The notes under the pieces are model-generated. The model saw only the letters and a list, made by a program, of their open reading frames with translations, did no database searches and had not been told where the DNA came from. DNA of 63,214 nucleotides, the filler included, from Dugesia japonica (Eukaryota), in NCBI GenBank assembly GCA_001938525.1. It is 6 parts of 6 records of this genome, joined end to end, with 100 filler letters (N's around TTAATTAATTAA, not from the genome) between each part and the next. Parts side by side here need not be neighbours in the genome. Positions count along the whole stretch, not along the records: positions 23,699 to 33,115 come from MQRL01377828.1; 5 more parts are not named here. One strand, written 5' to 3'. A program made the position numbers and the translations under genes. Below, in pieces: positions 8,936 to 63,214 of the stretch (position 1 is the first letter of the stretch; every line of letters starts with the position of its first letter).

Positions 8936-9089
8936 TATAAATTATAAGAAAGATTTATGGTTTATTCAAATTTTGGCGCAATTTCTTTTTAAATGTATAA
9001 ATAATATTATTAAATACACTATTTTTCTAAGGAAGAGGTAAGAAGGAGAATAGGAAAAGTATGGTTTTATTTTTTCCAGGGTGTGTGTG

Positions 9090-12783: not shown

Positions 12784-14135
<1,352 letters not shown>

Positions 14136-23235: not shown

Positions 23236-24185
23236 AGTCAATCTGAGTGAAAAGATCAAAATCATCACCAACATTAATTTGGTTACTCGAGAAAATCTAA
23301 TGGTTCTCATCGTCAAGCTTCAGAAAATTGAGTCAATCTATCCATTCACAGTAGAATAATTACAAGAAATTCAATTTTAAAAATCCTTTCGCCATTCCGT
23401 GTGTAAATCAGCATTTAATTCCCAAAATGAAACCACCAAAAAATTATCAATTTAAACATAGAGAACTGGATTCATTCGAAGCTTTCTGCTAGTCATTTAA
23501 ATTATTGGAACATTAGTAGCTTCATTCAAAAATTGTGTACAAATTGTCAATTTTTCCTACACAGTATATCAATGTTTAAATTACTAGAAGTAACCAGTNN
23601 NNNNNNNNNNNNNNNNNNNNNNNNNNNNNNNNNNNNNNNNNNTTAATTAATTAANNNNNNNNNNNNNNNNNNNNNNNNNNNNNNNNNNNNNNNNNNNNAT
23701 CCCCCAGACAGAAAATAGATTTGAAAGAAGAAACAGTGGAGATCGAGAGTGATAATGAAGATCAATATAAATGCAAACAACGTCAAAAAGCCTAGCAACC
23801 CAACAATGAGAACGGAGTAATTTAGAACAATGAAGTTGCAGATGGAGCTGATAACACTAGTGTGAATTATGGAGTAAACAATTCGGTTTTTCAAAGATTA
23901 GTGAATGAAGAAAATGAAATCATTGTTGGGGTACCTGCTGAGAAGATAGTAGAAAACGTTGGCTGAAGAAAAACAGCCCTCAGGAGACCCCCTTCAAGAA
24001 TTTAATCTAAAGTCCCTTTTTAGATTTTCGGTAAAGGGCGGTTGACCTCCAACATCTACTTGAGGTGCACACCCGTATACCTTTAAGTTTGGGTTCATGA
24101 TTCCCTTAATTTGATTTACAAAACAAAATAAAATAGACTAATTAACTGAATATATATATATATATTGGATTCATTATTCAATAAA

Positions 24186-24538
24186 TTAGAGAGCACCCGG
24201 GTCTAACCACTGGGTAGGCTCTTCATCTAAGTAATTAAAAACCGCCTCGTCGTCGTTATTATCCCAGCAGATCCAGGCCTCGTTTCCTAATTGACGTGAC
24301 AAATAAGCGATATAATGTTGCAAAAAATCTATTTTGTGTTGCAACAACTGTTTCGTTTGCTCGGCTAAGTCATTCTGTTTATTGACGATTAGGTCGAGTT
24401 TCTTAATTAATTTATTTCGTTGAGACAGGTGTTTTAGGAGGGCACGCTCATTCTGTCTTTTGATGTGTCACTCCACTAAAAACTTTTGAATTAGACTATG
24501 GCAACATCGTAAGCTGCGAGGTAATTGAATACGAGGAA
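24186..24538 (-). pseudogene. LTR-borne ORF-d (coiled coil + acidic/aromatic tail), copy A, one internal stop
   Basis: tttatttcag|TT CCT: PRIQLPRSLRCCHSLIQKFLVE*HIKRQNERALLKHLSQRNKLIKKLD...WDNNDDEAVFNYLDEEPTQWLDPGAL; homologous to 60096-60457. Confidence 0.8.
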
Positions 24539-24678
24539 CTGAAATAAAGAACTACTAGTTAGATTATAGACTACTTCACTAAAAATATTTAACTAGAAGG
24601 AAAATTCTTTTCTTAAAGATAGACAAACAAAATAAGTCACTACAAAGCAAGGAGACATTTATTTACAGACATAAACGG

Positions 24679-25037
24679 TCAGGGCCGGGAGGTTTGTGTA
24701 CCTTTGTCTATCAACAGTGGCTCAAGAAGTATCCTTTTTCGTAACTCCAAAATTTCATTAACCAGTTTATTCTCTCGATCATGGAGGGACCGGATGATTT
24801 CGGTGAAAGATTCGGCTTGGGTCTTCCAGAGCCGCTCCTCAGCATGGGAGGTCTCTGCTTCCTTACGAAACGAAATACGTTTGGTTTTATAACGTTTCAC
24901 TTTGGCTTCTGCAGTGGAGGTTTTAGCCTCCAAACGACGCCTAGCAAGTTGGTAAAGCTCCCACGTCATGTCGGGATCTTCGCTATCCTCTCGGATTTTC
25001 TTTGTTGGAGCGGTTGCACGGTTGAGTGAGGAATGTA
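24679..25037 (-). CDS. LTR-borne ORF-c (coiled coil ending DKGTQTSRP), copy A, open frame
   Basis: ttttctttcatag|TA CAT: HSSLNRATAPTKKIREDSEDPDMTWELYQLARRRLEA...IRSLHDRENKLV...LEPLLIDKGTQTSRP*; homologs in the three other copies. Confidence 0.7.
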
Positions 25038-25204
25038 CTATGAAAGAAAAGGTAAAATGATATCAATAACTACGAAAAATACTAAGTTCAGCGACTATTC
25101 GACACTCAAATTATTATTATTTTCTTACCAAGATATTAGCAAACAGCAATGAACTCGATTTATGAAAAGAATATTTTATTAGTTACTAAGCAAAATTTTA
25201 AACT

Positions 25205-25560
25205 TTATAAAACAGTCTTGTTGATGGGAGTGGGGTCGGAATTCTCAGCACTTCCGCCACTTTCCGTGTTGCGAATGCTCCACAAGTTGTCGTTTACAAA
25301 AGCAGTTAAATTGTAGAGGGGAAGAAGTTGATTAGTGTTCATATCCATCATCGAGGGTCTTTCATGCCATTCTCGAGTCACACGGACTTCACCATCTACA
25401 TTCCGTTGCGTATTTGTGACAGAATAGTAAACAGCGCGTTTACGATCAGGTCCATTTCAGGTCCGATAGGCGTGACGCTCGTTCGCATCCCACTTACGTT
25501 CATCGTTGGCTTCTTATGGGGGCAGATTGGACCGATCTGCAACAATGCTGGCATCCCTAT
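25205..25560 (-). pseudogene. LTR-borne ORF-b (WNGPDR / LWxLRN protein), copy A
   Basis: ERKWDANERHAYRT*NGPDRKRAVYYSVT...FVNDNLWSIRNTESGGSAENSDP aligns with copy D 61203-61481 (EREWDTAEWRAYYKWNGPDRTREVYHTVT...FVTNTLWELRNNADGG) and copy C ~58510-58625 (NNWLWELRNSSGLGNKENVDP). Confidence 0.7.
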
Positions 25561-25798
25561 TGTGGGGATTTCTATATTTTTTGAATATTTTGCGACCTAT
25601 CCTGCAGTCTAATAGTATTTCCCATTTATAGTCCATATCGGTATTATATTGACTCCTAATTATAATGAATATGCAAATAAATTTATTATATTACAAGAGA
25701 GTTGTGAATAATAAAGTAAAAACTGACATTAAATTTTTAACAAATGAATTAAAATTTTATTTTTTGTAAACATTGATGAGAGTTGAAAAAGATAAGAA

Positions 25799-25987
25799 TT
25801 ATGCTTCTTCGTCCAGGTCCACCTTAAAAGTTAGAGGGAACACCTCGGCAAAACACCGCAAGTCTGTTTCGTCGGGATGCTCCACCATTTCTGGAAATAA
25901 CAGGTGTCCGATGAGTTGCCGAAGTCGAGCACGTTTTCTCTGCTTTAAAATTATTCGTAGCGTCTTCCTTAATTCACTTGCTATACT
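25799..25987 (-). CDS. LTR-borne ORF-a (basic, EHPDE motif), copy A
   Basis: ttattttcag|AGT: SIASELRKTLRIILKQRKRARLRQLIGHLLFPEMVEHPDETDL...DLDEEA*; homolog in copy C 58232-58384 (TLRVIRKDRRKTRRKQLLAHILSFEEIEHPDESNL). Confidence 0.55.
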   Translation of the reverse strand, partial: SIASELRKTLRIILKQRKRARLRQLIGHLLFPEMVEHPDETDLRCFAEVFPLTFKVDLDEEA

Positions 25988-26239
25988 CTGAAAATAATAT
26001 TATAAGATTTACTGTCTTGTTACATCACCTCGACCCTCTCTTTACAATACTGAACAAAAATTGGAATTGCATTGTTCAGTGATTGCATTATAAATATGAA
26101 TTTTAGTATTGGTAGTTAGTAACTAAATGATTCTAAGGGTCTCTATCTCAAAGAAAAAATTCGAATATAATTAACTATAGCGAGTAATATGATGGTAATG
26201 CCACTAATAACGAAACCTGTATTCGCTGTAAATTCTGAA

Positions 26240-26610
26240 GAAGATATCGTCGATAATTTATAATAATAATCGAGTCAATATCATGAAGATCCTAGTCCTA
26301 GTGATAACACTATTTAAGCATGATAGTAATGTCTTGATACGATGATAAAGTTAATAACCGCAATGATATTATTGATATTATTAAGAATTAATTAATAATA
26401 ATAATTAATTAATTAATAATGAATTAATTAATAATAATAATGATATTAATAATAGTAATAATAATAACAATAATAATAATAATAATAATAATAATCATAA
26501 TAATATTAACAGCTGTAATGCCCAAAATTGATAGTGAGGATTGCAATGCCTGATGAATGTAATAACGCCGACAAAAATAACAACCATAATTTTATTAAGA
26601 AATAACAAAA
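26240..26610. repeat. Degenerate (AAT)n tract inside LTR copy A; equivalent (ATT)-rich tract at 57800-58130 in copy C
   Basis: Direct low-complexity trinucleotide repeat at the same relative position in two copies. Confidence 0.75.
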
Positions 26611-27393
26611 ATTCTGTTACCAAAATCTCGACACAATTTAGTTAAAATCGGGAATCTGAGTGTAGCCATAGTAATGTCTTACATTATCAATGGGAATAAT
26701 AACTGAAAATTATGAATGTTGATCATCGTCACAACTCATGGTACTATTGGCTGAATTGTGGTGATAGCAGTGGTGTACTTGCCTGTTCTTACAGTGGGGT
26801 GAATACTACTGACTTCTTGAATACTAGTAACTCGCAACTATTCAAAGTGCATTATTAGCAATACGTGGCCAACAATTAAAAATATCCATGACATTGGTGA
26901 AATATGGTGAATTACTCTAGCTATATTAATAGGTAACATAATTTAGTGTGTAACATCACTTCTATTCCAATCAAGACTAACTCAGCGACAAGACACGTGT
27001 GCGAGTAGCTACATGCATATGGAGATTAGCTGATTGTAGACTTCACTTGTTTAACATAAATTTTAGATATTGGATTAAATGACGAGTTATTATTCCGTCC
27101 TTTACGTTGAATTTATTTTAACAGATAATTCATTATAGCTGTGGGCATAAAAGAAAAAAATTTCTGTTTTAAAGTGGACATCAAAATTTCAGGAATTGGT
27201 GTTCTGATCGTTGACTGAGTTGAACAGACAGTAATCACAATCTAAGCACTGTGATTGGGAGTATATTTAATTTATTACTCTTGTAGAGATATAAATAAAC
27301 AGATAAAGTCTTTTTCTTTTTATGTTGAATATTTATTTCTAAATTAAATTGTTACATTGCATAATCATTCTAACAATACTAAACGACACTTAC

Positions 27394-28060
27394 TGTTTGT
27401 AATAAGAATATCTGCAAAGGGATTTCGGAGATCAATTAATTCTTTTCTGATTTCTTTTGCGCTTGTTTTCCTTTTTCTTCTCCTTTCCTTTTAATGCTAA
27501 TTCAACAATTAAAGATAATCCCTTGAATAATTGTGATTGAAATTAATACTTTTCTTGACGTTAAGTAAATCACTATATCGGCTACAACTGATTATCTATA
27601 ACTTGTCCGTAGATGAAAATGAGAAAATTTTGTTGTTTTTGACTAAAATTCGGGGGAGTTTTATTTGATTTTAAATGCAACTCCGCATCATTGCCATTGA
27701 GTTGCTATTTTTAATTCAAATTTCTTGCTTCTGATTAGCGATGGTGCCAATTTTCGGATTTTTCAGAGATTTTTAGAATTTCCATTGGTGGCTATTTTTA
27801 AGTCACCATGTAATCTTCTGTTCTTTGTTTTAGTTTCTTTTTCTGGATTACCATTGGTTTATTCTTCAAATCTTCATAGGGGTATTCCTGATTGTGATAG
27901 GATTTTCTTGTTGCAAAATCATATTGCCCCTTGACAATTTCTTTCCAGATTTTCTTTTTACACAACTCCATGATTTTTCTGAGAGGAGTTATTCCCGGAA
28001 AACTGATTTTGGCTTAATTTTAATTTATTTTCTGATAAAATTAATTAATTTTCCTTTATT
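27394..28060 (-). promoter_or_regulatory. Putative LTR promoter (CCAAT boxes, TATA-like) plus noncoding leader exon ending at donor CA|GTAAGT (27393)
   Basis: 27678-27990 is strongly conserved in nucleotide sequence with 62880-63214 (copy D) and more weakly with 55720-56100 (copy C). TATA-like sites lie at 27660 (A), 56098 (C) and 62862 (D), and a GT donor lies 255-320 nt downstream in all three. Confidence 0.55.
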
Positions 28061-28399
28061 AATTAATTACTATTTTCTTGCCCATTTTCTTATTTTCTTT
28101 TTCAATAATTAAAATTTCTCCCAATTAGTAATTTAGTTTCAACCCCTGTTTTACCCGGTTGATGTCTTCTTCCTGCACTTTCCCTTTTTAACTGTTTTCG
28201 TAATACCGCAATTACGTCGATTTTCTCATTGTTGACAATTATTAAACTCAGTCTCTTTTTCCAATCTCCTTCCTTACAATTTGGACCCCTGGCATTGTTT
28301 TTCTTTCTCAGGCCGGTGTTTCACCCCAACAAATCGCTCTCTGTTTTGTTTAAATTCCGTCCCTGAATTTGTCGTTGTCCATCCCCGTTGCAGAATCCC

Positions 28400-29297
28400 T
28401 CAACTAAAAGACAGTTCAAGACGAAATTTAAGGTCATTACATACAAAAAAATTTTGGTTCAGTTGGAGTCGAAGGGGGTACTGGTTGTCATGCGGGTGCT
28501 GCTGGATTTAAAATTGATTGTGGAGGGTTTAAGATAAGTAGATCTCTTGGATGATACGGAGCTGGTGTGACGCTGTAGGTGATGACTTGGTGAGAAATAG
28601 GTCTACAGTCTGCGTGCGATTGCTGGAGTTTTTTGATCATTGAAAATTGTTCGATCAAATGCTGTTGTTTTTGGGTGATCTCTGTTTCTTTTTCTTGGCA
28701 CAGAGTTCTTAGTTCGATAATTTCTTGCTCTAGTGCAGCTTTATATTGCTCATAATATTCGCTTTTGCTTTGATATTATTGAATGATGCTTTCAAACTCG
28801 AGAGATGGTTTATCGATGCCGGCCCACACGCCTTCTTGATTGGCTAGGCTGGTCAAGAGTTGATTTTCTGTTGCCAGGCTGGTTTTCTCGAATTGAGTAT
28901 TGAACAACTCGATTCTTAATAGTTGTGTGTTCTCTTGCTCTATGGTCAATTGATTTTCAATCTCTTTTCTTTTCGGTTTGACTTCTTTGAATTTGCTTTT
29001 CCACTTTTACGCTTGCTGTATAGCGTTTATTTTTGCTCTATTTTCATCGAGGGTTCTTTTGACTATTTTCTTATGAGCGATGCATGCTATCTTTTTTATT
29101 TCTAGCTCGTGACGAATTTTCTCGATTTGCGTTTCGAGTCCGCTAATATAACTTTGTAATTGGAGATTGAGCATCGCATTCTGTTTTGCATCCAATTTCC
29201 ATTTTAAAGATTCTTGGACAATAATAAGGGATTGACTCTGAATTTGCAAAACTTGAATTTCATTGCAAAGATGGGTAATTATGTTTTCGTTACTCAT
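28400..29297 (-). pseudogene. Internal accessory ORF of the giant element: long coiled coil with Pro-rich tail, several stops
   Basis: tag|aaATG 29297: MSNENIITHLCNEIQVLQIQ...IQQA*KWKSKFKE...ALEQEIIELRTLCQEKETEITQKQQHLIEQF...PAPYHPRDLLILNPPQS, in one frame across stops. Confidence 0.6.
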
Positions 29298-29402
29298 TTC
29301 TAAATCAGGGAGAATAATTAAATATAATACGATAAGTGACAATTAGAAATAAATATATGCACTATTTACATATTTTACTTTATTTTATTGTTTAAATTTG
29401 AT

Positions 29403-30734
29403 TCATAATACCCTACGTTCAATTAATTTTCGATACATAGGTCATTTGTTCAAGTTTAGAGCACAATTATAACAAGTTTTAAAATGTCCGCGTGGAAGAA
29501 ATATGACTTGGATTGATTCGTCGAGGCAAATGACGCAGTCACTACCGATTAGAATCCATTTTTGTTCATAACTTACTTGCTTAGTAATGGTTTGTTGTGA
29601 ATGCGGGTTCAGTTCCAACGGTGTTACTATTTCTATTCCCTTTTCCGCAACTATCTTAGCAATTAGTTTGCTGGTATTTTCTTGATTCAGATCGAGTATT
29701 TTGGTTTAAATTTTGCTTCCGAATTTTTTTATAAGTTTATTTTTGTATTTATACTGTTTCTCTATACACTCTCGTTCCTTTCATTGGTTACTTAACATCG
29801 TACGATTTTTCTAATGTTTCTATTGGGTTGATCGTCACATGAGTTCTTTTTATTGATAGTTGTTTTAGGATTCCAAAATTAATGGTCAATCTTTAAACCA
29901 TTGTATCTTCTTTCTGAGTCTCGTTATGATTTTTTAACTTGGATTTTTTCTTGACCATAATTTTCTTAATTGCTAATTTTTCCATCATGGTCGTTGTTTT
30001 TGCCATATTTAACAAAATATTTAAATTTCTTTTAAGAATAAATCGTTTTAGTTTTGTTGGGTTGCTAGGCTTTTGATGTTGTTTTCATATTTTGTTTTTC
30101 TCGATCTTTATTTCTAATTGCTTTACCATATTTGTTTCCTCTTCTAAATATCTTTTCTGTCTGAGCGATGATACCTAGCAACCACAGAAATTTGTGCTAC
30201 TCTCTCTAGCAACACGATCCTTCTTTTTCCGGATTCAGCAGGATTATGCTGTATCCCGTCTTAGTTGTTTCAATTTCTATCCAGCTCGTGTTTTTAAAAT
30301 TAAACCATCTTCGTCAAGATTAATTCAAGATGTACTCAAAACTCAAAACTATGTTATGTTCATAACGTTTATTTCCATCAAGATCATTCGTTCAGTTCTA
30401 CCACTTTCTTCGATTTCTCCTTAGTTATCTCGGATACTGGTCTCGGTGTTTGCGTTAATGTGCGAACTGTTGCAATCATTACGCTCTCTCAATCCGAATA
30501 CAATTTGATAATGTCAGCCATTGCATGACATGACTGAGATAATGCAATTATCTGTAATTTGGTGTTCCTTTCACGTAGTACTGAATTTTTTGGTTGAAGC
30601 TCGATGATTTTATTTTGTAACTTTTTCTGTAACGAAACGCATTTTTTGCGGATGTCCGCTACAGAAGTGTCTGTAAATTTTCTTCTCTCCGACACTGAAA
30701 TTATTGAGATGTAAAATTCTTTAATTAACTTCAT
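29403..30734 (-). pseudogene. Internal accessory ORF(s): coiled coil ending in an IAP/XIAP-type C3HC4 RING finger, degenerate
   Basis: 29540-29403 reads DCVICLDESIQVIFLPRGHFKTCYNCALNLNK*PMYRKLIERRVL*, i.e. C-x2-C..PCGH..C-x2-C..CPxCR with three Cys lost by single-base changes. Upstream is heptad-rich from tag|ATG 30734; continuity across ~29700-30480 is uncertain. Confidence 0.75.
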
Positions 30735-30919
30735 CTAATCATATTATTAAGTTTTATAATTATTGATCATAATTCTTTTAAAAATCGTTTTAAAATCGCT
30801 ATCACTATCGTTCAATATGAATTTATCGTTAATTCTTTTAACAGCTATCATTATCATTAAATAACCGTAAGACAAGAGAAAATGTTAGAGCTAATACTAT
30901 ATTGAAATCAACAAAATAA

Positions 30920-31441
30920 TCAGACAATAGTTTCCTGTACGTCAATGCTTTCATTCAGTGGGATTAGGATTTGACGTAATGTAACTTCAATTTTAGCGCT
31001 CAATTGCTCCGACATCATGGAGAATTCCTCTATCTCTATTTGTTTAGAACGTGACTTTTGTAGTAATTGTTGTTGGTACTGATTCAGCTCGGTAGTTTGG
31101 ATCAGTAGCGATACCAATTCTTTTTCTCGTTGCTATTGTTTGGTGGTCAGTTCCACAATTCAATTCTCCTGCTGATCGACTCTGTGTTGCAGTTGGTCGA
31201 TGCAAACCAGCTGATCCGTGTGTTGTTCTTTCTGTCGAAGTAAGGTCATCTGTAGCCGTTTTATCTCTTCCTCTTTTAAATGCATTTGTTCCTGCGTGAT
31301 CCACCATAAATCCTGATCAGTTCCATACTCCCCGATGGAATCCCATAAATTCGGCATATTATTTGTCACGCTAGTTTGAAAGAAGCAACGTTCTAATTGC
31401 AAAGATTCTTTGGCCACCTTCCTGTTAATTGATTTCGGCAT
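30920..31441 (-). pseudogene. Internal accessory ORF: Gln/Glu-rich coiled coil, two stops
   Basis: tag|aATG 31441: MPKSINRKVAKESLQLE...KEEEIKRLQMTLLRQKEQ...QQEN*IVELTTKQ*QREKELVSLLIQ..., one frame joining ORFs 31160-31456 and 30920-31117. Confidence 0.6.
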
Positions 31442-32596
31442 TCTAGATACTAACAATAATCATTGGCATTTATTAACTTTTAACAATACACCTAATAATC
31501 TTTAATAATATTGTTATAATTTAGTGTTATTATCAAAAAAATTAAATTTTTAATCTGGACTAATCAACAATCACTCGATCATGCGGATGAGGTTGGATTC
31601 TCTATAACTATTCATAATTCATATTGATAATCAATTCACATTCTTTCTTAACAAATCTTCGATATACTTCATCTTTATAATCATGTTCATATGCATATAT
31701 TATTGAGAGAAATCCATTCCTCTCAAAATGACAATTGATTCATCGGCCGGCTTCACGGTCAGTATCATAATCATTTGAAATATCAGTATATTAGTATCAG
31801 TAATCATCTAGAATAATAACTAACAAATGTTAATTGAATGGTATAATATTTTCATATAAATTTACAATCATATAATCATACAACATAAAAATTAATAAAC
31901 CATATAGGATTCAAAAAGTTTATGAGAGTCAGGATTCAACCACCCCACTCCTAATTTAGCTACTCGATTCTCATAAACCTTTCATATCGTATAATCGTAA
32001 TCAATTCACTTTAATGTATCACAATCAGTTCATATGTCGTATCATTTTTTTATCAATTCATGTCTCGTATCCCTTCGTATCACGTTATTATCAATTCATC
32101 AATTGATATCTCGTAACACTTTATTGTCAATTCAACTTTCGTCTCGCATAAGCATTAACGGCTTTCATAACAACATTTTAATGTCTCTCATAATAGCATA
32201 GATTTTATTAACTCTCATAATGTCATAACATGTTAACGTCTCTCATAATATCCTAATATCGTAAAATTTTAATGGTGGATAATCTCCTCAAAATAATTCG
32301 GATCTCTGAGCACTGACGTTTATCTTTATCGCATTTGCCAGTCAACGATAAACGTCGTCACAGTCTTCCGATCATATAATTTAAATAATCAACGTAAAAG
32401 TTACTTCTCGTTTGATGATAGAGTTTTAATAAATATTACTGATACCTTTTAACGATAAGATAATCAGATTTATGAGGTTTTTAAGAGATGATTTTTTGTT
32501 TAAATTAGATTTTCTTTTATACTGAAATTTATCATCACTTTTGACAGTTGCGGGTAGGCAGCCACTTCAAAAATTTTTAGAACTTATTGAATCGTG

Positions 32597-32852
32597 CGGT
32601 GCTCACTCGCAGATTCTTCTGCTATATACAAATTTGGACATTTATTTTTATTCATTTTTGTATTAGCATTTCGTATAGGTTTTATGTTTACATATGAATA
32701 CCGGTGCTCACTCGGCATCATAGATTTCTTATTGAACACAGTATGTTGTACGGAGCTCACCCGATACACATACTTTTATTTTACAAGTAATGTGCGGTGC
32801 TCACCCGTCACATATAATTTTGTTTCTTCATATAATGCACGGTGCTCACCCG
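32597..32852. repeat. Array of five 13-bp motifs CGG(T/A)GCTCAC(T/C)CG with AT-rich spacers
   Basis: Copies at 32597, 32702, 32751, 32795 and 32840 (spacing 105, 49, 44, 45). Confidence 0.85.
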
Positions 32853-33215
32853 ATACATATAGTTTTCAGAAATAATTCTTGTCACGATGAAATTCATGAT
32901 CATCGGACCGGCACGAATCAATTTAGAAAAATAATAATATTTATCATTTAAAATAATATTTTCTAAAGTTTCCTGGAAACTTATAAATACGGATATCTAC
33001 ATGAAAATTTGTAAATAATTTAATATCCTTAATTAATATTAGCATAAAATTAACTCCTCTTTCTCCTCATATAAATTTTATTTAAATATTCTATTGCTTT
33101 CCCTAAATTTAATTANNNNNNNNNNNNNNNNNNNNNNNNNNNNNNNNNNNNNNNNNNNNTTAATTAATTAANNNNNNNNNNNNNNNNNNNNNNNNNNNNN
33201 NNNNNNNNNNNNNNN

Positions 33216-33294: not shown

Positions 33295-33885
33295 GTTATG
33301 TATTATGGACTAATAAAGGCCAATATGTGAAAATATTGATATTTAATACGAAAATGTAAATAATTGTTGAAAAAAATGTTGATATTGCAAATTTGTTAAA
33401 TAATGTATTTCTCTAACTATTGGCATCAGTGTTTGTTTTAACAATTATTTTATTTCTCATATAATGTTCGAAACTGATAATATCAATATGGGAAATAGAA
33501 AATTCAAAATAAAATTAAACGAATAAATATCTATTTTCATCTATGAGAAACAATATATTATATCAGTTGTATTGCTTTTTATTAAATTAATTCTATTATA
33601 CGAACCAATAGGAATTATTACAGTCATTATTGAAAAACAAATAATCAAAGAAACTGATATTAAAACATATTTTGTTATAATTCTGTTGTAGTACATTGGA
33701 AAAACAATACAAATTAACTTATCCAAAGATAATAAGATCATTAAATAGATATCAATTATTCCGAAAATCCAAGTAAAAGTTGAATTACTCCGGACCATAC
33801 AATAATAATACTTATAATTTAATAAATAATTGGGAAACGTTTCATTTTCTTTTCTTAAAAATTCCCACATCAACTTTTCGACTCT
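33295..33885 (-). pseudogene. Rhodopsin-class GPCR fragment (TM3-TM4 exon plus TM6-like segment), probably a pseudogene
   Basis: YYCMVR...IDIYLMILLSLDKLICIVFP (DRY-equivalent S-x-D-K), hydrophobic TM4 and a loop Cys, then a stop. Downstream AISTFFSTIIYIFVLNINIFTYWP with stops. Confidence 0.6.
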
Positions 33886-36169
33886 AAAATATATTTTATT
33901 CAAAATAATTTATTTGAGGTTCTTTATGTTTACGTTTCATATAATTAATATATTTAAATAATAAATATATTTTCACAAATTATTCTGCAAAATTGTTAGA
34001 AATTTCATAGTTCAATTTAAAAAAAAATAATTAATTTTATTCAATTATCTATCACAAATTTAATTTATATTAATAATAATTATTAATAACATCTAAAACA
34101 TTTGAATGACGATTGTAATTTTGCACTGGGATAAACAGATTTACATTTATCTGGAGTTAGAAAAAGTAGTTAAATTTCTAATAATTACCATTTTCTGTTG
34201 TATTTCTGCAGCATTTTTAGAACACAATTTTAGACTTTAAAAAATTAAAGTTTTTTAAATTTATACTGTTAAATTTGATTTAAATTTAAAATTTCAACTT
34301 TTTTGCTTTTATCTACTGACAAATTTTTGACCTATGCCTAGTAATATACATAAAGACAATCGATCTGCAAGTCATCTGATAAAATAATACCACAATTACT
34401 AATCAACAACAAAGAAGAATTATTTGACAGGTTTGTCAATTAGGAAGATCGATAAATTGAGTTGCAAACTGTATTTGGGAACAAATTACAATACTTTACG
34501 GATACATTTAAATAGGAGTATCACATTATTTTATAAATAATGGTCCCGAATTTTCAATATCACTATCCACTAATAATCAATGTCTTGATTAATTGGAAAG
34601 CACCTTCTGATTATTGGAAAATTTTCCTACAAAGAGCTGAATCCGGTTAATTTTTCTGAGAAATGAGTATGACTGATTCAAAAGTCATTTTGGAAACAAT
34701 TTTTTCTAAGGCAATTTTAATTGATGAAACAACATATAATCCTCATCTTCAAATATCGCAAACGAGATGAAAAATAGAAAGAAGAGTCGTTATACATACC
34801 CCAATAGTAAAGGAAAGATTAGTAACTATGATGGCTAGTATTTCAATAAGTATTGGAATGCAATATCCGATTTCATGGTAAATAGCGATATCTGAAAAAC
34901 AAGAAAAATATGAGTCGTGATTTGAATTTTAAAATTGTTTTATCAAGTAGAATTACATAATTCAATCTGTTTCTTTCTTGGTTTCAACTTCAATTTTTAA
35001 AGACAGAACAAAATTGTTGAATGAAATGATAGCAATAAAAATTTAAATAGGAACAAGTTGGATACTCAGACTTATTTTGGAAATTAACTTCAATATCGAA
35101 ACAACTATCGAGGAAGTAATTATTGTTGAACTACTATAAACCTCGAAAATAAAGTCTACAATAAATGTTAAGATTACTGACAATATGTGTTCCATCTACA
35201 GTATAAGTGCCATTCTCAAACAAGATGTAGTCAAATAACGTAAAAAATACTGAGTAGCAAAATATAAAAAAAACATATTTGAATTTACATACAATGAAAA
35301 GAGCATGCAGCAAAATCCAAAATAATATTGTTTTTTCTAAAATGTTAAAATTTTCAATCAGAAATATCTACCAATTTTCTTAGTATTCACCTATACTAAT
35401 TGTTTGATTTATTAGTTTGCTTCATTTAATTCAATTAAAATAAGAACTCCAATTCAACACTTTATTAATACACAAATAATTCTTCTATAAAATTCTTCTT
35501 GCTTTCAGAATGTTTCTGCCCAAAATTGCCTTATATAATTTATTTGAGTAAATTATTAAAAAAAGTTTACTTTATTAATTATTTAATTTATAAAAAATTT
35601 AAAATTATTTTTTAAAATATCAATAAAAACTTTATAAATAATTTCCCAAAATTTTACATTTACATTGCAGTAAATTTCAATTTATAAATTTGTATAAACA
35701 AATTTACATTACGTATTTATATTTAATAAATAACTGCAGTTTTAAATTATTAAAAGCAGTTAAAAAATATTTTTAAAAAACACTGTGTAACATTACTATA
35801 TGAATAAATAGACACAAGAAAATTGAAATAACACAAACCCTGGAAATTGTTTTTTCTAACATTAAAATATGTCAAACGATAAACTTGTTTGCGTTCATGA
35901 CAACTTCACCGGCGAATAATAATTGTCATTTTATTTGTAAATAAATGTTCGGCTACCAGATGTTTTTCACAATCTCCACCATATCATCAAATATTTTATG
36001 GAATATTTAGGAATTTAAATATAATGTGATCATAACTAATTTTCATATACAATCATTTTATCAGCTTATAAATACTGGATAAACAAAAATAACACAATTA
36101 TGAAAATACTTTAGTAAAGTAAAATTCCTGGATGCAAGTGTTTATTAAAATTCATGTTGATTTACATCA

Positions 36170-42716: not shown

Positions 42717-42974
42717 GTTAAATTTAAAGTCTCACAAGTCTCCATAATTTGTTTGTTGATTATTACAAGTCTTTTCTTAAAAATAAAAATATGGAATAAC
42801 AATTAAAATATTTCAAACAAATAATCTAAGAAATCTTAATGAAATATTTTTCAACAATATTGGTTTTTTAAATTCTAAAATAATTTTTTTTAAACCACAA
42901 TATAGAAAATAATTTTTTAAAACTTTATAATTTAACAATGTAAAATTTTAACTTTAATTTAAAATACCTTTGTT

Positions 42975-43520
42975 TTGCATATATATCGTCTTTCGTTGTT
43001 TCTGTTTTTTGCATTTCTTCATTACGATTCGTGTTGAAATTTCTTTGTTCTGGGCTTCTGCGAACGGCATTTCTGTAGTTACGAACTACATTTATTCTTT
43101 CGGTTTTTACTTCGTCTTTTATGTCTCCCCATTCTTTTATTTCTTTAAATACATCGTCTACTTTTTCTATTTTTTCTTATTTGATTTTATGTTTAATCTT
43201 TCTGTCATTGCAACTATTCATTATTAGCCCTTTTGTTAAGTCTTCTTTGTTCCATTTATAAGCCATTAATTTTTCTACCCATCCTTCAATCTTCTTCTTA
43301 TTGATATTTATGTGCTCTCCATCCCTTCGATAGTTTAAAGCTTCCTCCATATTTTTAATCATTGTTGATGGTCTAAAGAAAGCCTTTCTGAATCTTTCTT
43401 CAAATCCCAATGATTCGTCTTCATTTTCAAAGATTCCACGCCGTTTTTTTATCTATGAAAGCAAGTACAAACAAGCTTCTATGGCCTTTCTTTGTTCCAG
43501 CAATATCAAAATATTTCGTG
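42975..43520 (-). mobile_element. LTR-retrotransposon gag-like fragment
   Basis: FDIAGTKK..LFVLAFID...FEERFRKAFFRP..MEEALNYRRDGE... followed by a K/R-rich tail. Helical gag-like character only; no diagnostic motif. Confidence 0.4.
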
Positions 43521-53645: not shown

Positions 53646-54704
53646 CCATAGTCCTAATAATTTAACCGGTCTCTCATCATGATTTTCGGTTATTTCTTGA
53701 CCGTAGAATATTGATATATGAAGACAGTGGGGATATCGACATGTCCTGGGATCTATATAAACTGGCAAAAAGAAAATGGGAGGCCCATATTGCCACTGTT
53801 AATAGTAAGGTGAAACGTTACAAAAGTAAATGTCATGCATACCGACTGGAAGCTAAAGCTTTTCACGCACGAGAACGCGTGTAGAAACAACAACTGGAAA
53901 AGTTCGCCGATGTAATACGGTCCCTCCATTATCGTGAAAATAAACTGATTTCCGATTTACTCGAAATGCGTAAGTGGATCCCCTTGGAGCCTTTATTGGT
54001 AAATGAAACTACTCAAACCCAAAATTGATTAATTAATTGTTTTATGAATAATTAAACCCTCCTGTATAACTTGCTTTGAATCATTAATTATTCTGTTTAT
54101 TAGTTGACATTTACGCTGTTTCTTTCTAGTGCAACGGATTCGTTTACCCAATTCACTCAAGCGTTGTCACAGACTAATCGAAATATTACTACTCGAACGC
54201 CATTACGCTAAACAAAATGAGCGCGCACTACTACATCACTTAATCCAACGCAATCGTCTAATAAAGAAATTGGATATCATAGTAAAAAAACAGGATGTGT
54301 TGGTGAATCGAACAAAACAGATTTTGGTAAATAAAATCGATTTTCTAAATAGGTATATCGCCAACCTGTCCACTCGATAGGAATTAGAGAGTTGAACAAG
54401 ATAGAATAATGATGATGATGAGGCTGCATGCGATTTTGCGAATGACAAGGCCGTCCAGTGGCTTGACTCTATTTTTTTCTATTTAAATGATTATTAATGT
54501 CTCAAATTGATTGATTAATGAGGAAATAATGAACCCGAACAAAAGGTACTTGTGCATGCACTCCAAATACATGTTGGGAGTCAAAGGCCTTGTACTAAAA
54601 ACCTGAAACAGGAACTTTAGGTCAATTCTTCGAAGGGTCCCCGGAGGGCTGTCTTTTCCCCCAGCCATATTTTTTCTACACACAACTCAGGTGGAACCCC
54701 AACA
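53646..54704 (+). mobile_element. Giant LTR copy B (3' ~1.06 kb, truncated by scaffold start) with ORF-c (~53718-54028) and ORF-d (54130-~54480)
   Basis: EDSGDIDMSWDLYKLAKRKWEA...IRSLHYRENKL..PLEPLLVNETTQTQN*; tttctttctag|TG CAA CGG ATT; ends GGTGGAACCCCAACA. Confidence 0.8.
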
Positions 54705-55452: not shown

Positions 55453-58400
55453 TTTTGGGGTGAAACACCGGTTGATAAAAAACAATAATTGACAATGGCC
55501 TCAAACATAGGCAAAGAAGACAAAAGCAAAAACTATTCGCATTATATTAATTAATAAAAGAACATAAAATACTATTGAATAATGAAAGGGGAGCTGTAAT
55601 CAATAAAGTACTGAGCAGATGATTATATAACGAAGGTGTAATAACATTAATTAAAAAAATTTATTTTTTAACATGAAAAAACAAGAAAAAGAGTATTAAT
55701 CAAAATAAAGAAATAATAGAAAAATTAATTAATTTTATTAAAGAAAAGAACTTAAAATACGAGAAAATCAGTTTGGGACGATTTACTCCGTCTAGGAAAA
55801 TCAGAAGTAGTGCAGCAAAGAAAATTCCGATTCAAAATGATTCACAGCAATTGAATTTCTCAACGGAAAAAAGTTACCAACACCAGAAGAGTTTGTAAAA
55901 AGGGTTTGAAGATTCAACCAATAGCAGACCAGAAAATAAAAACAAAGAAATGGAAAACACGTGGTGTCCTAAAAAAATGGTACAACAGAAAATTGTCAAA
56001 AACTTTAGAATTTTAGGCAAAAACCCAATAAAAAACAAGAATGGCAAAACAAAAATAGCTAGCCAACAAGAAAGTAGTTGGGGTGCACATGAAAAGCTAT
56101 AAAAGCTAGCGAAAATTTAATTCAAAAAACTCAATTTACTTTAAACAATTAAAAATTAACTTGCTCGCTGAAGTTCATCGATTTAAACCACACCTCAAAT
56201 TGGACAGAATTACAGTAAAAGATTTCGCTACATTATAATTTGGACTAATTTTCATTTAAAGGATAATTCAGATTCAGTTAATTCCAATAATTCGTGCTAC
56301 CACAAACACTGTCAGACAAAACCTGTTCCAGAATTTCACTTTATAAATCAAAATAGTAAATAGTACTATGCTATATTTGTTTTATATTTTAGTTATTGAA
56401 TGATTAGGAGTAGAAAAAATTAACGATTAAGTGGCATTTAACTAATTACTAAGTAATATTATGCATCATTAACGGGAGAGATCAAAATTTGTTTTTTATC
56501 AGATACAGACTTTCAACTGCAAAACCAATTCGTTATACTGCGTCATAGATAATATAGTATCTCCAGAAGTAGCATTAGTTTTCCAACCTAAATTTTGCCT
56601 GTGTGTGTCAACTCATCGATCGATAAATTGAATATCAGATTATGATAATCTACTCCTAAAGTAGGTGTGTATAGATATCTTGTCAGACAAAAATATTTGC
56701 TTCACCACGGTAATTTGGCAGCATTGATTAATCTTTCTGGCTGCATATAAAATAATCTTACCAGCAGCAGCATATCATTTGTTACAAAATAAATTTTTCT
56801 TTTACTATATAAACAGAATGAAATGTATCACAACCATCATGGCCGTAGAAAATTCACAACATGAATGGTGAACATGACTATACGAATTTCTTTATACTGG
56901 ATTATTTCTCCTTCGATCGTCTAATGTTTCTAATCCCGGAGATTATTTCACTCGCAATATTAGAGAGAATGTCTTCTCGCTAGCTATCAGAAATCGATAC
57001 CCGTCCGGAAACAGACACTGAACTCACTCCTCTGACTTTTTTGGCTAACAGTAGTGGTATTACCTGGGGCAATGGGGACGAAATTGTTAAGATACTGGTT
57101 CTATCTATTATGAGTTGGGGCAACTAAGTCTCGATTATGATTCTTCAAGCAGAACTATATTTCCAGGAACAGACTATTACCCCGCACATTGCTGTAATCA
57201 CGAAAGGCATTCTTCATCAAAACTTCAGTGTGCGGATATGTTGTCATCTGTCTTCACTACTGACATGTCCACGAATATTGGTATCTCTTTATTATTCCAA
57301 CCATTTATCACCATCTTACCTGCTAGTGGCTTCAGATACAAAATTACTGATTTTGAGTGTGGTTTTCATGTTAATAATTTATAATTATTATTAATTATTA
57401 TGAAAAAATCATTTATTAATATGTCCATAAATTTTCTTTGTTGCGTTCGAGAATGCAACGAGTGTTATGACATACTCGATATGACTGCGTAACTATCATG
57501 GTAACTGCTTTAATAATGACCCGAGTGACATTAGTATTATTAATATTAGTAGTTCTTAGTTATCAATCAGTATGTCATAGGAACTAATGGGTCTAGTTGG
57601 ATTTACTAATTCATTACAGGTCGGATTCGGTTAGCTATAGTGCCGGTGTGCGTAATAGAACTAGTTACTCTGTAATTTAAGGCATCTCGTACCCATCACT
57701 AGGTCACCCTTGCTAAATTGGTATGATGTAACGAATAGTAGTAAACAGCATTAAGTCCTCAGAATAATTATTACTCACCTTCGTAAGGAGTGTGAAATTG
57801 ACTTTATAATTATTACTATTGTAGTATTGTGAACGATGCGATCATTATTATCACTATTAATATTATCATTATTACTGTGACTGTTGTAGTATCACTATTG
57901 CTATTATTAATTTTGTAACTATTTTAACTACTGCTATTGTCATTTATATTAGTATGATTATTACTATTATTATTATTCATTGCATTAATCTTATCATCAT
58001 TAATATTACAAATAGGATTGTTATTATTAGTACTATTATTTTCATAAGCACTAATATTACTGCGATTGATGTAACCTTTATTATTAGTTTTATTGATACT
58101 GGTATCGACATCAGCTCCATTATGATTAATAAGGACTTTGAGATTCTGCATTTGCAGTCGGTGATTTTATGTATTTAAGAAATTGTTATTCATGGTGACA
58201 GTTCCTCATTACAATATCCGTTATTCTGATGAACACTTTAAGGGTGATTCGAAAAGATAGACGAAAGACCCGTCGCAAACAGTTACTAGCTCATATTCTA
58301 TCATTTGAAGAAATCGAACACCCGGATGAGTCTAATTTACAATCCCCTTTAGAGCACTGCGTTGATATAGACATTGATTTTTAATTACATTAATCTACTC

Positions 58401-59875
58401 TTCTGTTTTATGATTTAAATAAAAAAATACCAATCCCTTCTTAATCTGTATTAATTTAAATTTTCTAGTAAACAAGGCTCAGCAAGGTCTAGTGTAGCAA
58501 AGCCCAGTATTAACAACTGGTTGTGGGAGCTCCGCAATTCATCCGGATTGGGGAATAAAGAGAACGTTGACCCAGAGCCCCTACCGGCCAACATCGAAAT
58601 GTCGGATGACACTGAGCATTCATGAAAATTCAATGGTGTTTACTTTTAGTAGTGATTTCTTAGAAGTAAATGAAGTGGAATATCTGATTATGTCTTAAAA
58701 TATTTTTGTTCTTTAGTGTATCAGCACGCTTGATCCGGTATAATTAAATAAGATTGTTTTTCGTCGGATTTAATCTGATTTTTGACACCTAATAAATCTT
58801 TTTATAATAAAATTAATGAATAAATTTTAGTGCTCTCCTCGCCCTAACCAAAAAGGTCTGGGAAGATAGTGAGGACATAGAGATGTCCTAGGACCTTTAT
58901 AGATTAGCTAAGAGGACATGGGACGCCGAGACAGCCGCCAGAACGCCAAAGTAAAGCGCTACCAGCGTAAATGCCGTAACTTTAGAATATAAGCAGAGAC
59001 CTCCAATGCTTAGGAGCGTGCTTGGAAACATCAAGTGGAGTCCTTTGTCGATATTATCCGGTCCCTCCATGACCATGAGAATAAACTGGTATCTGATTTG
59101 TTGGAAATACGGAAGCATGTTCCTCTGGAGGCTTTGATGGTAGATAAATCCACCCTAACTAGAAATTAATTACCTAAATATTTCATTGTAAATAAATATT
59201 ATTGTTACTGCTTTAATATTTTAATTGATCTGACTGGTGTCGTGAATTTATCATCTCTTTATTTTTTTAGTGCCACGAATTCAATTACCCACCAGCCTTT
59301 GCCGTTGTCACCGCCTTATAAAAAATTATTGCTCAAGCGTCACATCAAGCGCCAAAATGAGCGAGCTGTTTTGAGGCACCTAACATAGCACTGTCTAATA
59401 AAAAAATTAGATATCATCGTTAAGAAGGAAGGCGAGTTAGCAGAACATACAAACCAAGTCCTCCTACATAAGATTGCGTTCTTACAGCATTATATTGCCA
59501 ATTTAGCCAATCGCCTTGAGCAGGAGACTTGGACCCGTTGAAATAACAACGATGACGAAGCCGCTTTTAGTTTTATAGATAGCGGGTCTACCCAGTGGTT
59601 AGACCCTGGTGCGCTAGAATTTATGTAATTTAGCGAAAAATATATTTTTATTTGAAGTTTTATTATCAATAATGTTTAATAAATAAAATAATTGGCAAAG
59701 TAATGAACTCGAAATAAAGGTATACGAGTGAGCACTTCAAGTATACGTTGGAAGTCAACCGCTCTGTACCGATAGCTTAATCAGCGGCATTAGGTAAATT
59801 CTAGAAAGGGTCCCATGAGGGCTGATTTTTCCCCAACCATATTTTTCTACTACAAACTCAGGTGGGACCCCAACA
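55453..59875 (+). mobile_element. Giant LTR copy C (4423 bp), solo LTR with 4-bp TSD
   Basis: Starts T(T)TTGGGGTGAAACACCGG, ends GGTGGGACCCCAACA, with TTAT on both flanks. Contains decayed ORF-a (58232-58384), ORF-b (~58480-58625), ORF-c (58831-59169) and ORF-d (59271-59628). Confidence 0.82.
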
Positions 59876-60095
59876 TTATTATTATTACTATTTGGGTTCC
59901 ACCTGAATTTAGAGTAGAACAACACGGCTGGAGAAAAAACAGCTCTCAGTGGACCCTTTCAAGAATTTAACTAATGCCCACACATAAATACACACACATA
60001 TACCTTTACTTTCGGGTTCATTAGTTTTCCCTTAATTTTGGTTATCAAAGAAAGCAAAAATTTTTTTAAAATAAAATTTATATGGGTTTTCTAAA

Positions 60096-60457
60096 TTACA
60101 TAAAGTTGAGAGCACCCGGGTCTAACCACTGGGTTGGCTCGTCATCTAAAAAGTTGAACGCGGCTTCGTCATCGTTGTTGTTCCAACAAATCCACGTTTC
60201 ATTTCCTGGTTGTTTGGCTAAGTCATCTATGTATTTTTGTAAGAAATCGATTTTGTGTTGTAACAACTGTTTGGCCTGCTCGGCTATTTCACCCTGTTTC
60301 CTTAGTATAGCATCCATCTTTTTAATTAACTTGTTTCGCTGAGAAAAGTGCTTTAAAAGAGTCCTTTCGTTTAATCTCTTACAGTGGCATTCCAATAACA
60401 ATTTTTGAATTAATTTGTGGCACCTACAAAGGCCGGTAGGGCGGCGAATTCGTGGCA
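60096..60457 (-). CDS. LTR-borne ORF-d, copy D, intact 120-codon frame
   Basis: ttcttatttcag|TG CCA CGA...WNNNDDEAAFNFLDDEPTQWLDPGALNFM*; three homologs in the window. Confidence 0.7.
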
Positions 60458-60600
60458 CTGAAATAAGAACGTTAAATCAAATATAAGAAGATGGAATAAT
60501 TAGTTTATCACTGTATAATTAGTTAACTAAGGAAAGTAATGAGAACTACAATACTTGGAAACAACTTTTATTAATAGATTAACAGAGAAAATGTTAAAAC

Positions 60601-60954
60601 TCAAGGACGCAAAGTTTGAGTGCCTTTATCGACCATCAGCGGTTCGAGTGGCATGACCTTCCGTAAAAGTAAGATATCTGAGTTTATTCTCACGATCATG
60701 GATGGGCCGGATAATTTCAGTGAACGATTCAACTTGCGATTTCCATAAACGCTCTTGTGCGTGAGAAGCCTCCACTTCTTTCCCAAAGGCTATACTCTTT
60801 ATCTTATATCGTTTAACTTTACTTTCATTTGAGGCGGTGTCCGCCTCCAAGCGTCGTTTCGCCAAACGATAGAGGTCCCACGTCATTTCGGGATCCTCAC
60901 TACTTTCTTTTATTTTCTTAGCGAGAACCATATAGCGGTTAAGAGATGAATGCA
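60601..60954 (-). pseudogene. LTR-borne ORF-c, copy D, one frameshift near 60680
   Basis: ttctgtttttatag|TG CAT: HSSLNRY...DPEMTWDLYRLAKRRLEA...IHDRENKL / LRKVMPLEPLMVDKGTQTLRP*. Confidence 0.78.
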
Positions 60955-63214
60955 CTATAAAAACAGAAGTAAATAAGATAATCACAATCGGTGGATGATG
61001 TAGTTATCAACCCTTAAGCAATCATAGGCATTAAAGTTCATGATTCGACACTAATAAAGTAATAATAAATAGCAAACTGCGTTCGTAACGCTTGTAACGA
61101 CACGAGTACACGACTACTTAATTAAACACTTTTAGCTTTATTATTATTATCAAAACACAATGAATAGCGATAAAACGTAGTTACACTTAATATAATTCAT
61201 TGTCAATCCGCAGCGACATTTTCGAAAGCGCCACCATCTGCATTATTTCGCAACTCCCATAGAGTATTTGTTACGAACTCCTTTAACCCGGAGAAAGGTG
61301 GTAGATGAGCTGACGATACTGGTACGACTGCGAGGCCGTCTTGCCACTCACTCGTGGTCTATAGCTCTTCTATGTTAATGGATGAGAAAGCCGTAACAGT
61401 GTGGTAGACCTCTCGAGTTCGGTCGGGTCCATTCCACTTGTAATATGCGCGCCACTCGGCCGTGTCCCATTCTCGTTCATTATAAATAAATAAATAAATA
61501 TCAATAAATATCAATATACAAAAATGACAATTTTCTTTATAAAACGATCAGGATAAGAGTGAATACCAATGATAATGATAATACTTAACATAATGATTAT
61601 CGCTAAATTCACTAGGTACTTCGATTTGTCATGATTGGCTTCCATAGTCCGTGATGAATCTTAATACTGACTGAAAATTGGATAATTATTTGACGATTAC
61701 TGAGCATAGCTTGAGAAAAACAGGAATGTTAAGCTTACTCCGCAGATTTGTGAGCAAGATCCACCATCACTTGCGAGACACTTTTATTGGGAAAACAAGT
61801 AAAATTTACATATGTCTGGAAATAATGTTGTGAACAGGGGACTATATGGCGTCTGCACAAAGGGGGGATTCGGTTGCATTATGGAATCAGTAGTTGAGGT
61901 TTATATCCAACTGATAAGATCAATGAAACGAGGGTTGACATAGTTACACAGTAATCAGAAAATTCACTAATTTGGCCATAGCAAAGATTGGCTTGATTTA
62001 AAGAGAAATTCCTAAGACGAAAGTTTGCCGACAACACATGTATAACAGATTCACCACGAGTTTATACATGTTTAAATCCAACACGGATTTAATTGTTTAT
62101 TGTTTTTATTGCAACACGAATAGTTTGCAACTATCATTAGAAAATATTTACTATCGAAAATCGATTATCTGACTCAACTGTGATGAGTAATCCATACAGT
62201 TGTGCACACCCGTCCTCTTAATTTCATATCACGGTTACAAAAAAACTGTTTATGTACACATACAGTTGTTGTTGTTAAGCATAACGATGCAAGGCAGTAA
62301 TTCGATTAAAACAGACAATGATGATTTGAATTTTACATGAGGCATTACGATCTAAGTCGATGAATTTTCTGTGGCTCAGTGTGTGACTCAAATGCTTTAA
62401 TAATGGAAATCTTGGTAAATTTAGAAATTCAATAAATCATGTTTGATGTTTAATAGATCGCATAAAGTTAAGCAATTTTAAAAAAATTGTTTATATTTCA
62501 TTTACATAAATATATATAAAATAAATTTCACGGAGCATTACTTACTTGTCTAGTTTAATAATTTCGATTCTGCAGCGGGACTATCTAAATTTTAGTGGTA
62601 ATGTAGAGCGGCTGGGTAATGGATTTCTTCATCTGACTTTCCTTGTGAATAACGTTAATTTCGATTAATCTATAATTTTTTTACTCTGCTATTTTCCCAC
62701 AGATTTCTGTATATGCGTCTCTTCGTTTTTCACTAATTAATCCAAATTAATTGATTTATTCGTGGATAAATTCGTGTGATGATAAGTTAGAAATAGTAGG
62801 ATTCTGTAACACTTGTTAAAACTCAAATTTGAGGGTAATTTTTATCTAAAGTATGTGAGTTTATATATGATTTTCCGATGCAACTCGGCATCATCACAAT
62901 TGGATTTCTATTTTAAACTCGAATTTCTTGCTTCTGATTGGCGATGGTGCCAACTTTCAGATTTTTTCATAGATTTTTAGAGTTTCCATTGGTGGCCTTT
63001 TTTAAGTCATCATGTGATCTTCTGTTCTTTGTTTTATTTTTATTTTCTGGCCTCTCATTGACCCGTTTGTCAAATCCCTGTAAGGGTCTTCCAGCTGATG
63101 ATGAAGTTCTCTAATCGCAAAATCCTGTGCTCTAATGCTTTGTCAAATTTTCTTTTCAGATTTTCTTGCACCAAGTTTCTATGACTTTCCTGAGTGGAGT
63201 TATCTGTAAAAAAC

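Follow-up and report, generated by a model that had tools for sequence, protein, structure and literature searches.

The window analysed here, a 63,214-nucleotide stretch of the planarian Dugesia japonica (GCA_001938525.1), comes from a draft, AT-rich assembly (about 27% GC, 18-38% per 2 kb; 19 counted gaps) and holds several related copies of a cassette of small open reading frames (ORFs). Self-comparison resolves four copies, A to D, of the part encoding ORF-c and ORF-d, with 57-65% identity over the six pairs; copies A and C lie on the minus strand and copies B and D on the plus strand. The region around the TATA-like box is common to copies A, B and C, and two further ORFs, ORF-b (A and B) and ORF-b2 (A, C and part of B), are found between a candidate leader exon and ORF-c. 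Our analysis adds that this cassette lies inside a unit with TG...CA ends, 4,408 bp long in copy A and 4,423 bp in copy B, and that this unit is probably a long terminal repeat (LTR) belonging to a giant retroelement resembling Ty3/gypsy. The copies are placed as follows:

23924..28331 (-): copy A, the 4,408-bp unit
55453..59875 (+): copy B, the 4,423-bp unit, within an ATT tract and with matching 4-bp flanks
59889..63214 (-): copy C, whose left end lies beyond the window
53646..54704 (+): copy D, right part only, with a gap on its left

The left end of copy A (28331) reads TGTTGGGGT, and the reverse complement of this 9-mer closes the copy at 23924; all four occurrences of the 9-mer in the window, where 0.11 would be expected, fall at unit ends. 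The boundary was first seen by blastn, and at the left end (28331/55453) the in-register identity between A and B rises from 4/20 outside to 18/20 inside. The terminal inverted repeat, 9 bp in A and 8/9 in B, stops after 9 bp, with no similarity above shuffles beyond it, and the two units agree closely in length despite middles that barely align. The ends show TGTNR, the stated end pattern of gypsy LTRs (PMC2836005). Directly before the left end of copy A stands a purine run (28334..28351, minus strand; 15/18 purines) that may represent a polypurine tract, a single example on an A-rich strand. In its anatomy, copy A, with same-strand ORFs upstream and no 4-6 bp target duplication around it, is likely a 3' LTR, and copy B is likely a solo LTR.

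Several observations weigh against this identity. No match to gag, protease, reverse transcriptase or integrase was found near the copies, including about 4.8 kb upstream of copy A, a side that runs into a gap at 33116 beyond which the gag and pol of a giant element could lie. The window shows no internal region enclosed by two LTRs, no TGG primer-binding site directly follows the four right ends (none of which is established as a 5' LTR), and the 4-bp match of the copy B flanks falls in an ATT tract, where a chance match is easy. In several 300-nt bins, the unit middles of A and B show no excess likeness, at 0.53-0.57 against 0.55 in the shuffled control.

The missing retroelement core genes also speak for a different identity, namely a non-autonomous TG...CA DNA transposon resembling Ginger, or a Polinton/Maverick or DNA-virus insert with an E3/E4-like spliced unit. 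RING and coiled-coil genes, of the kinds described below, occur in DNA viruses. Ginger ends share TGTNR and 4-bp duplications (PMC2836005). Yet the inverted repeat measures 9 bp here and 40-270 bp in Ginger, copy A is without a target duplication, and the TG...CA ends differ from the (AGT)2 or (AG)3 of Mavericks; intact vertebrate Maverick genes are, moreover, intronless (PMC8097293). A Polinton terminus was rejected as well. Searches gave no match to a transposase, PolB, INT, ATPase, protease or capsid, and we consider a DNA element improbable.

Contigs of one public run contain many additional copies: a variant at 59048 is present in 86 contigs, and one contig of 1,446 nt spans from ORF-c to the right-end block at a similar distance. 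Summed depth, which here is not copy number, is high at both unit ends and low in the middle. Copies B and C stand tail to tail, 13 bp apart (59875-59889), within one ATT tract, and the end of copy D also adjoins AT-rich, ATT-like sequence. The family may favour AAT/ATT microsatellites as targets; the contig flanks are consistent with such targets, though biased toward such sequence.

Selection and structure of the ORFs

In copy A, four ORFs follow one another within the unit:

25802..25987 (-): ORF-b, running from a phase-0 AG without a front ATG; homologue in copy B at 58211-58342
25208..25636 (-): ORF-b2, with its own ATG shortly after an AG and two in-frame stops; homologues in copy C (61194-61481) and partly in copy B
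24679..25037 (-): ORF-c exon, acceptor followed by TA, conserved Met at 24969, coiled-coil-like
24186..24538 (-): ORF-d exon, acceptor followed by TT, one in-frame stop; a predicted long helix with an acidic, aromatic tail

Copy B, in which ORF-c and ORF-d are both broken, has the ORF-c Met at 58883 and the ORF-d acceptor at 59271. In copy C, the ORF-c acceptor lies at 60954 with the frame broken near 60680, and ORF-d spans 60457-60096; the right part that remains of copy D holds the ORF-c Met at 53741 and the ORF-d acceptor at 54130.

Fourfold sites are saturated between copies (29/89 identical). For ORF-d, the proportions of synonymous (pS) and nonsynonymous (pN) differences are 0.83-0.95 and 0.17-0.29 in three pairs, and for ORF-c in A/C they are 0.79 and 0.16. 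Selection is visible from the acceptor onward in both: the first 16 codons of ORF-d give pS 0.60-0.90 against pN 0.17-0.35 in six pairs, and the stretch of 22 codons that leads from the acceptor of ORF-c to the Met gives 0.84 against 0.22 in A/C. Because selection covers these first codons, translation began at or before the junction. ORF-b is 45% identical in amino acids over 44 codons between A and B, with mismatches by codon position of 22/14/34, and ORF-b2 shows 8/6/18. These patterns indicate that the ORFs were functional and shaped by purifying selection, which makes the cassette a real, selected multi-ORF set inside a 4.4-kb unit that is likely an LTR.

The model of ORF-d, built on the copy C protein, is a single helix over residues 7-80, with a predicted local distance difference test score (pLDDT) >90 in most blocks, followed by a disordered acidic tail; Foldseek returned no match to it at E<=0.001. 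ORF-c reaches the Pfam family BRE1 at E=7e-4, under the cut-off, and the ORF-b2 model has a pLDDT of 49. Judged by their predicted shape, ORF-c and ORF-d may be coiled-coil regulators. Homologue searches with ORF-d, with the ORF-c alignment and, among longer proteins, with the RING ORF described below found none; a profile of ORF-d had 0 matches among 1.84 billion representatives, and viral and metagenome contigs yielded no homologue. The 73 viral-contig matches to a 17-letter motif were rejected, having nothing else in common by blastn or tblastx.

AATAAA follows the ORF-c stop in 3/4 copies, which is weak evidence in AT-rich DNA; the motif lies early in the spacer between ORF-c and ORF-d, which is 104-146 nt long and closes with an acceptor. 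Near the end of ORF-d, a 23-nt stretch is almost identical in copies A, B and C (24190-24213, minus; 59590-59612, plus; 60109-60132, minus), possibly an overlapping cis-element, given that synonymous sites elsewhere are saturated. Ile-rich hydrophobic frames occur in the variable middle of the unit, at 57861-58175 (+), 61645-61510 (-) and 26371-26509 (-). The last of these is the ATT-type low-complexity tract of copy A (26371..26509, minus strand), to which the tract of copy B corresponds in relative place; the frame in copy C begins with ATG and looks like a small membrane protein, and Pfam gave no match for that of copy B.

Leader, splice sites and start codons

The first-pass annotation of this sequence had read the copies as transcribed from an LTR promoter, with one leader exon spliced to alternative 3' exons and a start codon possibly created by splicing. 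Its observations were confirmed in part, and its interpretation found partial support. The parts concerned are, in copy A:

27675..27920 (-): conserved block upstream of the TATA-like box, without codon periodicity, probably promoter- or enhancer-like
27659..27666 (-): TATA-like box, weak (AATAAAA)
27394..27655 (-): candidate leader exon, ATG-free
27388..27393 (-): donor GTAAGT, after an A

Of the TATA-like boxes annotated at 27660, 56098 and 62862, those of copies B (56098) and C (62862) are TATA proper, and that of copy A is the weak one listed; TATA boxes occur in only 5% of planarian promoters (PMC10558129). The conserved block before the box is 77% and 85% identical between A and C, with mismatches by codon position of 14/12/12 and 5/3/5. 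A coding ORF in this region was rejected, as periodicity is absent in A/C and weak in A/B (21/20/28), and the open frames there are due to the A-rich strand. The notion of an LTR promoter gained support from its position, 645-671 nt into the unit bounded by TG...CA.

Donors are present where they had been annotated, at 27393 (CA/GTAAGT, the slash marking the exon boundary), 56356 (TA/GTAAAT) and 62545 (AA/GTAAGT), the only GTAAGT/GTAAAT site that the three copies have at matching positions. The leaders are indeed poor in ATG, with 0, 0 and 1 against 4.6, 3.3 and 4.8 expected; among 5,601 windows of 260 nt, 98 are without ATG and 434 have at most one. An ATG-free stretch of 255 nt precedes 4/109 donor-like sites, the donors of A and B being among those that qualify. 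The alignment of the three leaders is weak (z 1.7-2.5), so the depletion of ATG has outlasted the sequence. The exon ends in A at 3/3 donors, as first noted, a regularity that loses force in a window where A precedes 47/120 GTAA[GA]T sites anywhere (p ~0.06); the base three before the leader-final A is also A in all three leaders. In A, B and C, the donor is preceded by a CAG at a distance of 18, 24 and 24 nt, respectively (27390-27420, minus; 56326-56356, plus; 62545-62575, minus), possibly a micro-exon or a conserved motif.

If the ORFs were real and leader and donor were chance motifs, each ORF would be served by other promoters or exons. GTAA[GA]T does occur about once per kb, the leaders barely align and RNA lends no support; against this stands the ATG-free stretch from TATA-like box to donor in three diverged copies, comparable at only 4/109 sites, and we find coincidence far-fetched.

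TG had been reported after five of seven acceptors. Five sites do read AG/TG (54130, 58831, 59271, 60457 and 60954), with the qualification that 58831 is out of frame: it has 6/14 pyrimidines, lies in another phase and, read like the other acceptors, leads to a stop after 4 codons. TG follows 4 of the 6 in-frame, same-phase acceptors, T comes first in all six, and TG follows 8.2% of the 231 acceptor-like sites in the window. The acceptors of copy A read TA (25037) and TT (24538), as annotated, and for ORF-c of copy D an acceptor-like site at 53707 is in the same other phase as 58831 and is followed by AA. ORF-c and ORF-d had both been described as starting at same-phase acceptors with no ATG at the front, and this holds for ORF-d, whose first ATG after the acceptor is out of frame in 4/4 copies and which, having no conserved Met, needs a start from outside. 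In ORF-c, by contrast, 4/4 copies share a conserved Met; in A and C it lies 68 nt downstream of the acceptor, and copy C has an extra in-frame ATG at 23 nt.

A start codon split as A/TG is accordingly not needed by ORF-c, which has its own Met; it is needed for ORF-d only, where it does about as well as a free third base. Weighed against a free third base, a split ATG has a likelihood ratio of 0.27, 4.4 or 7.2 depending on the G frequency assumed for such a base, with a decay of about 0.05 per site taken for copy A from its 7 stops in 853 codons, and the six sites are not independent because the copies are related. Whether the leader-final A completes an ATG is, in our estimate, a coin toss. 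The two alternatives first offered for copy A, decay or a Val codon, had left out a third, in which the codon after a leader-final A would read Met or Ile.

Either codon type would arise if, in the same LTR cassette, the start came from an upstream coding exon and the junction codon were internal. TG, TA and TT would all encode Val after a G and all Met or Ile after an A; copy A has 32 and copy B 56 open codons in the frame that fits the donor phase; the likelihood ratio is compatible with this arrangement, and a free third base would be expected to vary because fourfold sites are saturated. It is rather unlikely all the same: every frame opened by an ATG upstream of the three donors closes before the junction, stops interrupt the donor-phase frame of C near the donor, the three peptides are unalike, and no G-ending donor is common to the copies.

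Under a trans-splicing scheme, the ORFs would be cut, in operon fashion, from one precursor by polyadenylation and spliced-leader addition at the same AGs. The ORF-c/ORF-d spacer, with its early AATAAA and terminal acceptor, would suit such processing, as would ORFs upstream of copy A whose ATG lies 0-13 nt after an AG. A flatworm leader ends in AUG (PMC9851317), which would suit the phase-0 ORF-b. A whole AUG at the ORF-d acceptor, however, would be out of frame and meet a stop after 15-16 codons in 4/4 copies, and the N-terminal codons of ORF-d are nonetheless under selection, which leaves this scheme very unlikely.

For cis-splicing from one leader to alternative 3' exons, the anatomy fits, with the position of the donor, selected codons after the acceptors and AATAAA, and no junction read was seen. 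We regard splicing from the leader to the acceptors as probable, and we lean slightly toward the fuller reading of an LTR cassette in which one promoter and one leader serve alternative 3' exons, the leader-final A completing, at about even odds, the ORF-d start. Counting against it are the weak TATA-like box of copy A, the lack of G after both copy A acceptors, and the low end of the likelihood ratio. The ORF-c acceptors of B and D and the ORF-b acceptors lie in other phases, so that no single rule fits all acceptors. Three RNA runs (6%, 25% and 25% of each read) placed on copies B-D at 82% likeness gave mean depths of 0-1.5 in leader bins and 0-2.2 in ORF bins, too shallow for junctions; among the joints listed, the best 15 of 154, 0/15 had RNA reads, at a depth too low for such a count to tell. 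In planarians, LTR elements are derepressed when the piRNA pathway is knocked down (PMC8532177).

On the cassette reading, the promoter behind the conserved block would start a leader of about 250 nt, and its donor would join one of several acceptors, each ORF ending at its own stop and presumably having a separate poly(A) site. The leader-final A with TG would supply the start codon of ORF-d and, in copy C, that of ORF-c, with roughly equal chances for and against. ORF-b2 would use its own ATG; translation of ORF-c would begin at the junction in copies of the A/C lineage and probably at the internal Met in B/D; phase-0 ORF-b would not be explained by the scheme. ORF-c and ORF-d might act like the Tas/Bet-type accessory proteins of foamy viruses, the acidic tail of ORF-d resembling an activation region. 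The most general form of the idea, an LTR as a multi-gene unit in which an A-ending leader meets several TG acceptors and splicing both picks the gene and builds its start, is a doubtful extension that we offer tentatively.

The place of the promoter within the LTR depends on the right end of the unit:

23924..24100 (-): right-end block of copy A, conserved at the nucleotide level, with ATG, donor-like AAAG/GTA and YTCAG in four copies; possibly R-U5-like

Identity in this block is 63-81% where fourfold sites are saturated. In all four right ends (24098-23937, minus; 59703-59862, plus; 60021-59902, minus; 54529-54691, plus) an ATG, a stretch of 17-18 nt and AAAG/GTA follow one another, and YTCAG comes 101-145 nt after the donor-like site, copy C being short of 41 nt between them. 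AAAG/GTA could be a further intron or the major splice donor of the element. The block may be the true R-U5, in which case the cassette would lie in U3; a promoter internal to a long U3 is marginally favoured over one opening a 3.7-kb R-U5. We rejected the end of a convergent ORF (pS 0.19-0.38 against pN 0.19-0.30; open frame within shuffles, 15%) and a stable RNA structure (z +0.4 to -1.5 in 8 folds) as sources of the right-end motif, and Rfam gave one match only, at E=0.99 and outside the element.

Relation to known elements

LTRs are normally regulatory and are not known to hold more than one gene in U3. The sag gene of mouse mammary tumour virus is such a single gene inside U3, and in the E3, E4 and late units of adenovirus, which is not a retroelement, one leader is joined to many acceptors and the poly(A) sites are separate; both serve as analogies only. 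Our literature searches, which were not closely aimed at the question and did not cover the primary papers on the planarian element family Burro, returned no spliced multi-gene cassette inside an invertebrate LTR.

The sequence beyond the two ends of copy A includes the following parts:

28491..29297 (-): upstream coiled-coil-like ORF whose own ATG lies 2 nt past an acceptor-like AG, with two stops
29400..29582 (-): decayed RING finger of inhibitor-of-apoptosis (IAP) type, at the end of a broken ORF (Pfam zf-C3HC4_3, E=1.1e-8)
30492..31357 (-): two more coiled-coil-like ORFs; in both, an ATG directly or closely follows an AG
23699..23806 (+): fragment beyond the right end of copy A

The best PDB matches of the RING are the RING domains of cIAP1, cIAP2 and XIAP (E 1.5e-8 to 1.4e-7). 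Pfam and PDB searches around it found no BIR, which tells against a Burro-like element, and the idea of a DUF3627 or BIR domain preceding the RING was rejected for want of support from either; Pfam assigned no family to the ORFs at 30492..31357. The fragment at 23699..23806 resembles 30054-30169 (-) in reverse (73.5% over 117 nt), suggesting from its sequence that copy A inserted into another family member, of which this would be a nested piece. Tandem repeats of 27 bp and 45 bp lie upstream of these ORFs (32172-32256, 32747-32866), and Burro maps mark tandem repeats too (PMC6431247).

By description, the closest element family is Burro, to which the element may belong. The likeness lies in accessory ORFs, an IAP-type RING, coiled-coil (Smc-like) segments, decayed copies and an AT-rich host (PMC6431247; PMC13465017), and in LTRs of several kb, implied for Burro by an internal region of up to 25 kb in a total of >30 kb (PMC6431247). 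Burro1 is reported, second-hand, to have a RING+BIR IAP region (PMC13465017). Unlike Burro, the sequence here gave no match to gag, pol, env, BIR, BCL2, MATH or ankyrin, and genes inside Burro LTRs are not described in the excerpts of PMC6431247 and PMC13465017 compared. The 4.4-kb unit may be an already-described Burro LTR; without gag/pol or a protein homologue, family membership is unproven.

Parts of the proposed expression have counterparts elsewhere. In foamy viruses, a second promoter near the 3' end drives the spliced tas and bet accessory mRNAs, but that promoter is in env, outside the LTR, whereas here promoter, leader and exons would all be in the terminal unit (PMC13220597); no sequence similarity to foamy virus was found. 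Splicing builds the env start codon of the Drosophila LTR retroelement gypsy, as AT/G and to one acceptor in the internal region, in contrast to A/TG and possibly two acceptors on one leader here (PMC2585583). The MDG1 group has small selected accessory ORFs near the LTR, sORF1 and sORF2, and an early poly(A) site; its transcripts are unspliced and its ORFs are described upstream of gag (PMC11952523).

If the cassette reading is right, accessory-gene regulation would reach past vertebrate retroviruses, to an invertebrate LTR with four selected ORFs and complex-retrovirus-style splicing. Solo LTRs, usually seen as gene-free relics, would stay coding units, each keeping a complete, independently expressible regulatory gene set. 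A splice-built start on several exons would mean that these proteins are not translated from unspliced genomic RNA, and it would conceal them from gene finders, which may explain their absence from databases. Were the element Burro-like, it would bring unannotated candidates to a family with a reported effect on planarian stem cells.

Surrounding sequence

The rest of the window holds a host gene and remains of other elements. The host VPS29 gene lies at 5079-5660 (-), with introns of about 46 nt, and a fragment of a rhodopsin-type G protein-coupled receptor with weak Srsx/7tm_1 matches is found at 33544-33909 (-). Alongside AAT tracts, there are fragments of Mariner/Tc1, hAT and FLYWCH type (8554-8937, 15977-16225, 49850-50650 by eye, 12943-13275 and 445-636). 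Decayed gag-like frames of other elements occur at 47860-48700 (-), which has a weak PNMA match (E=0.059), and at 42928-43452 (-). A short repeat of very high copy number at 54880-54990 draws most of the RNA and contig depth, and pieces related to it lie near 7245, 7994, 11900 and 45777.

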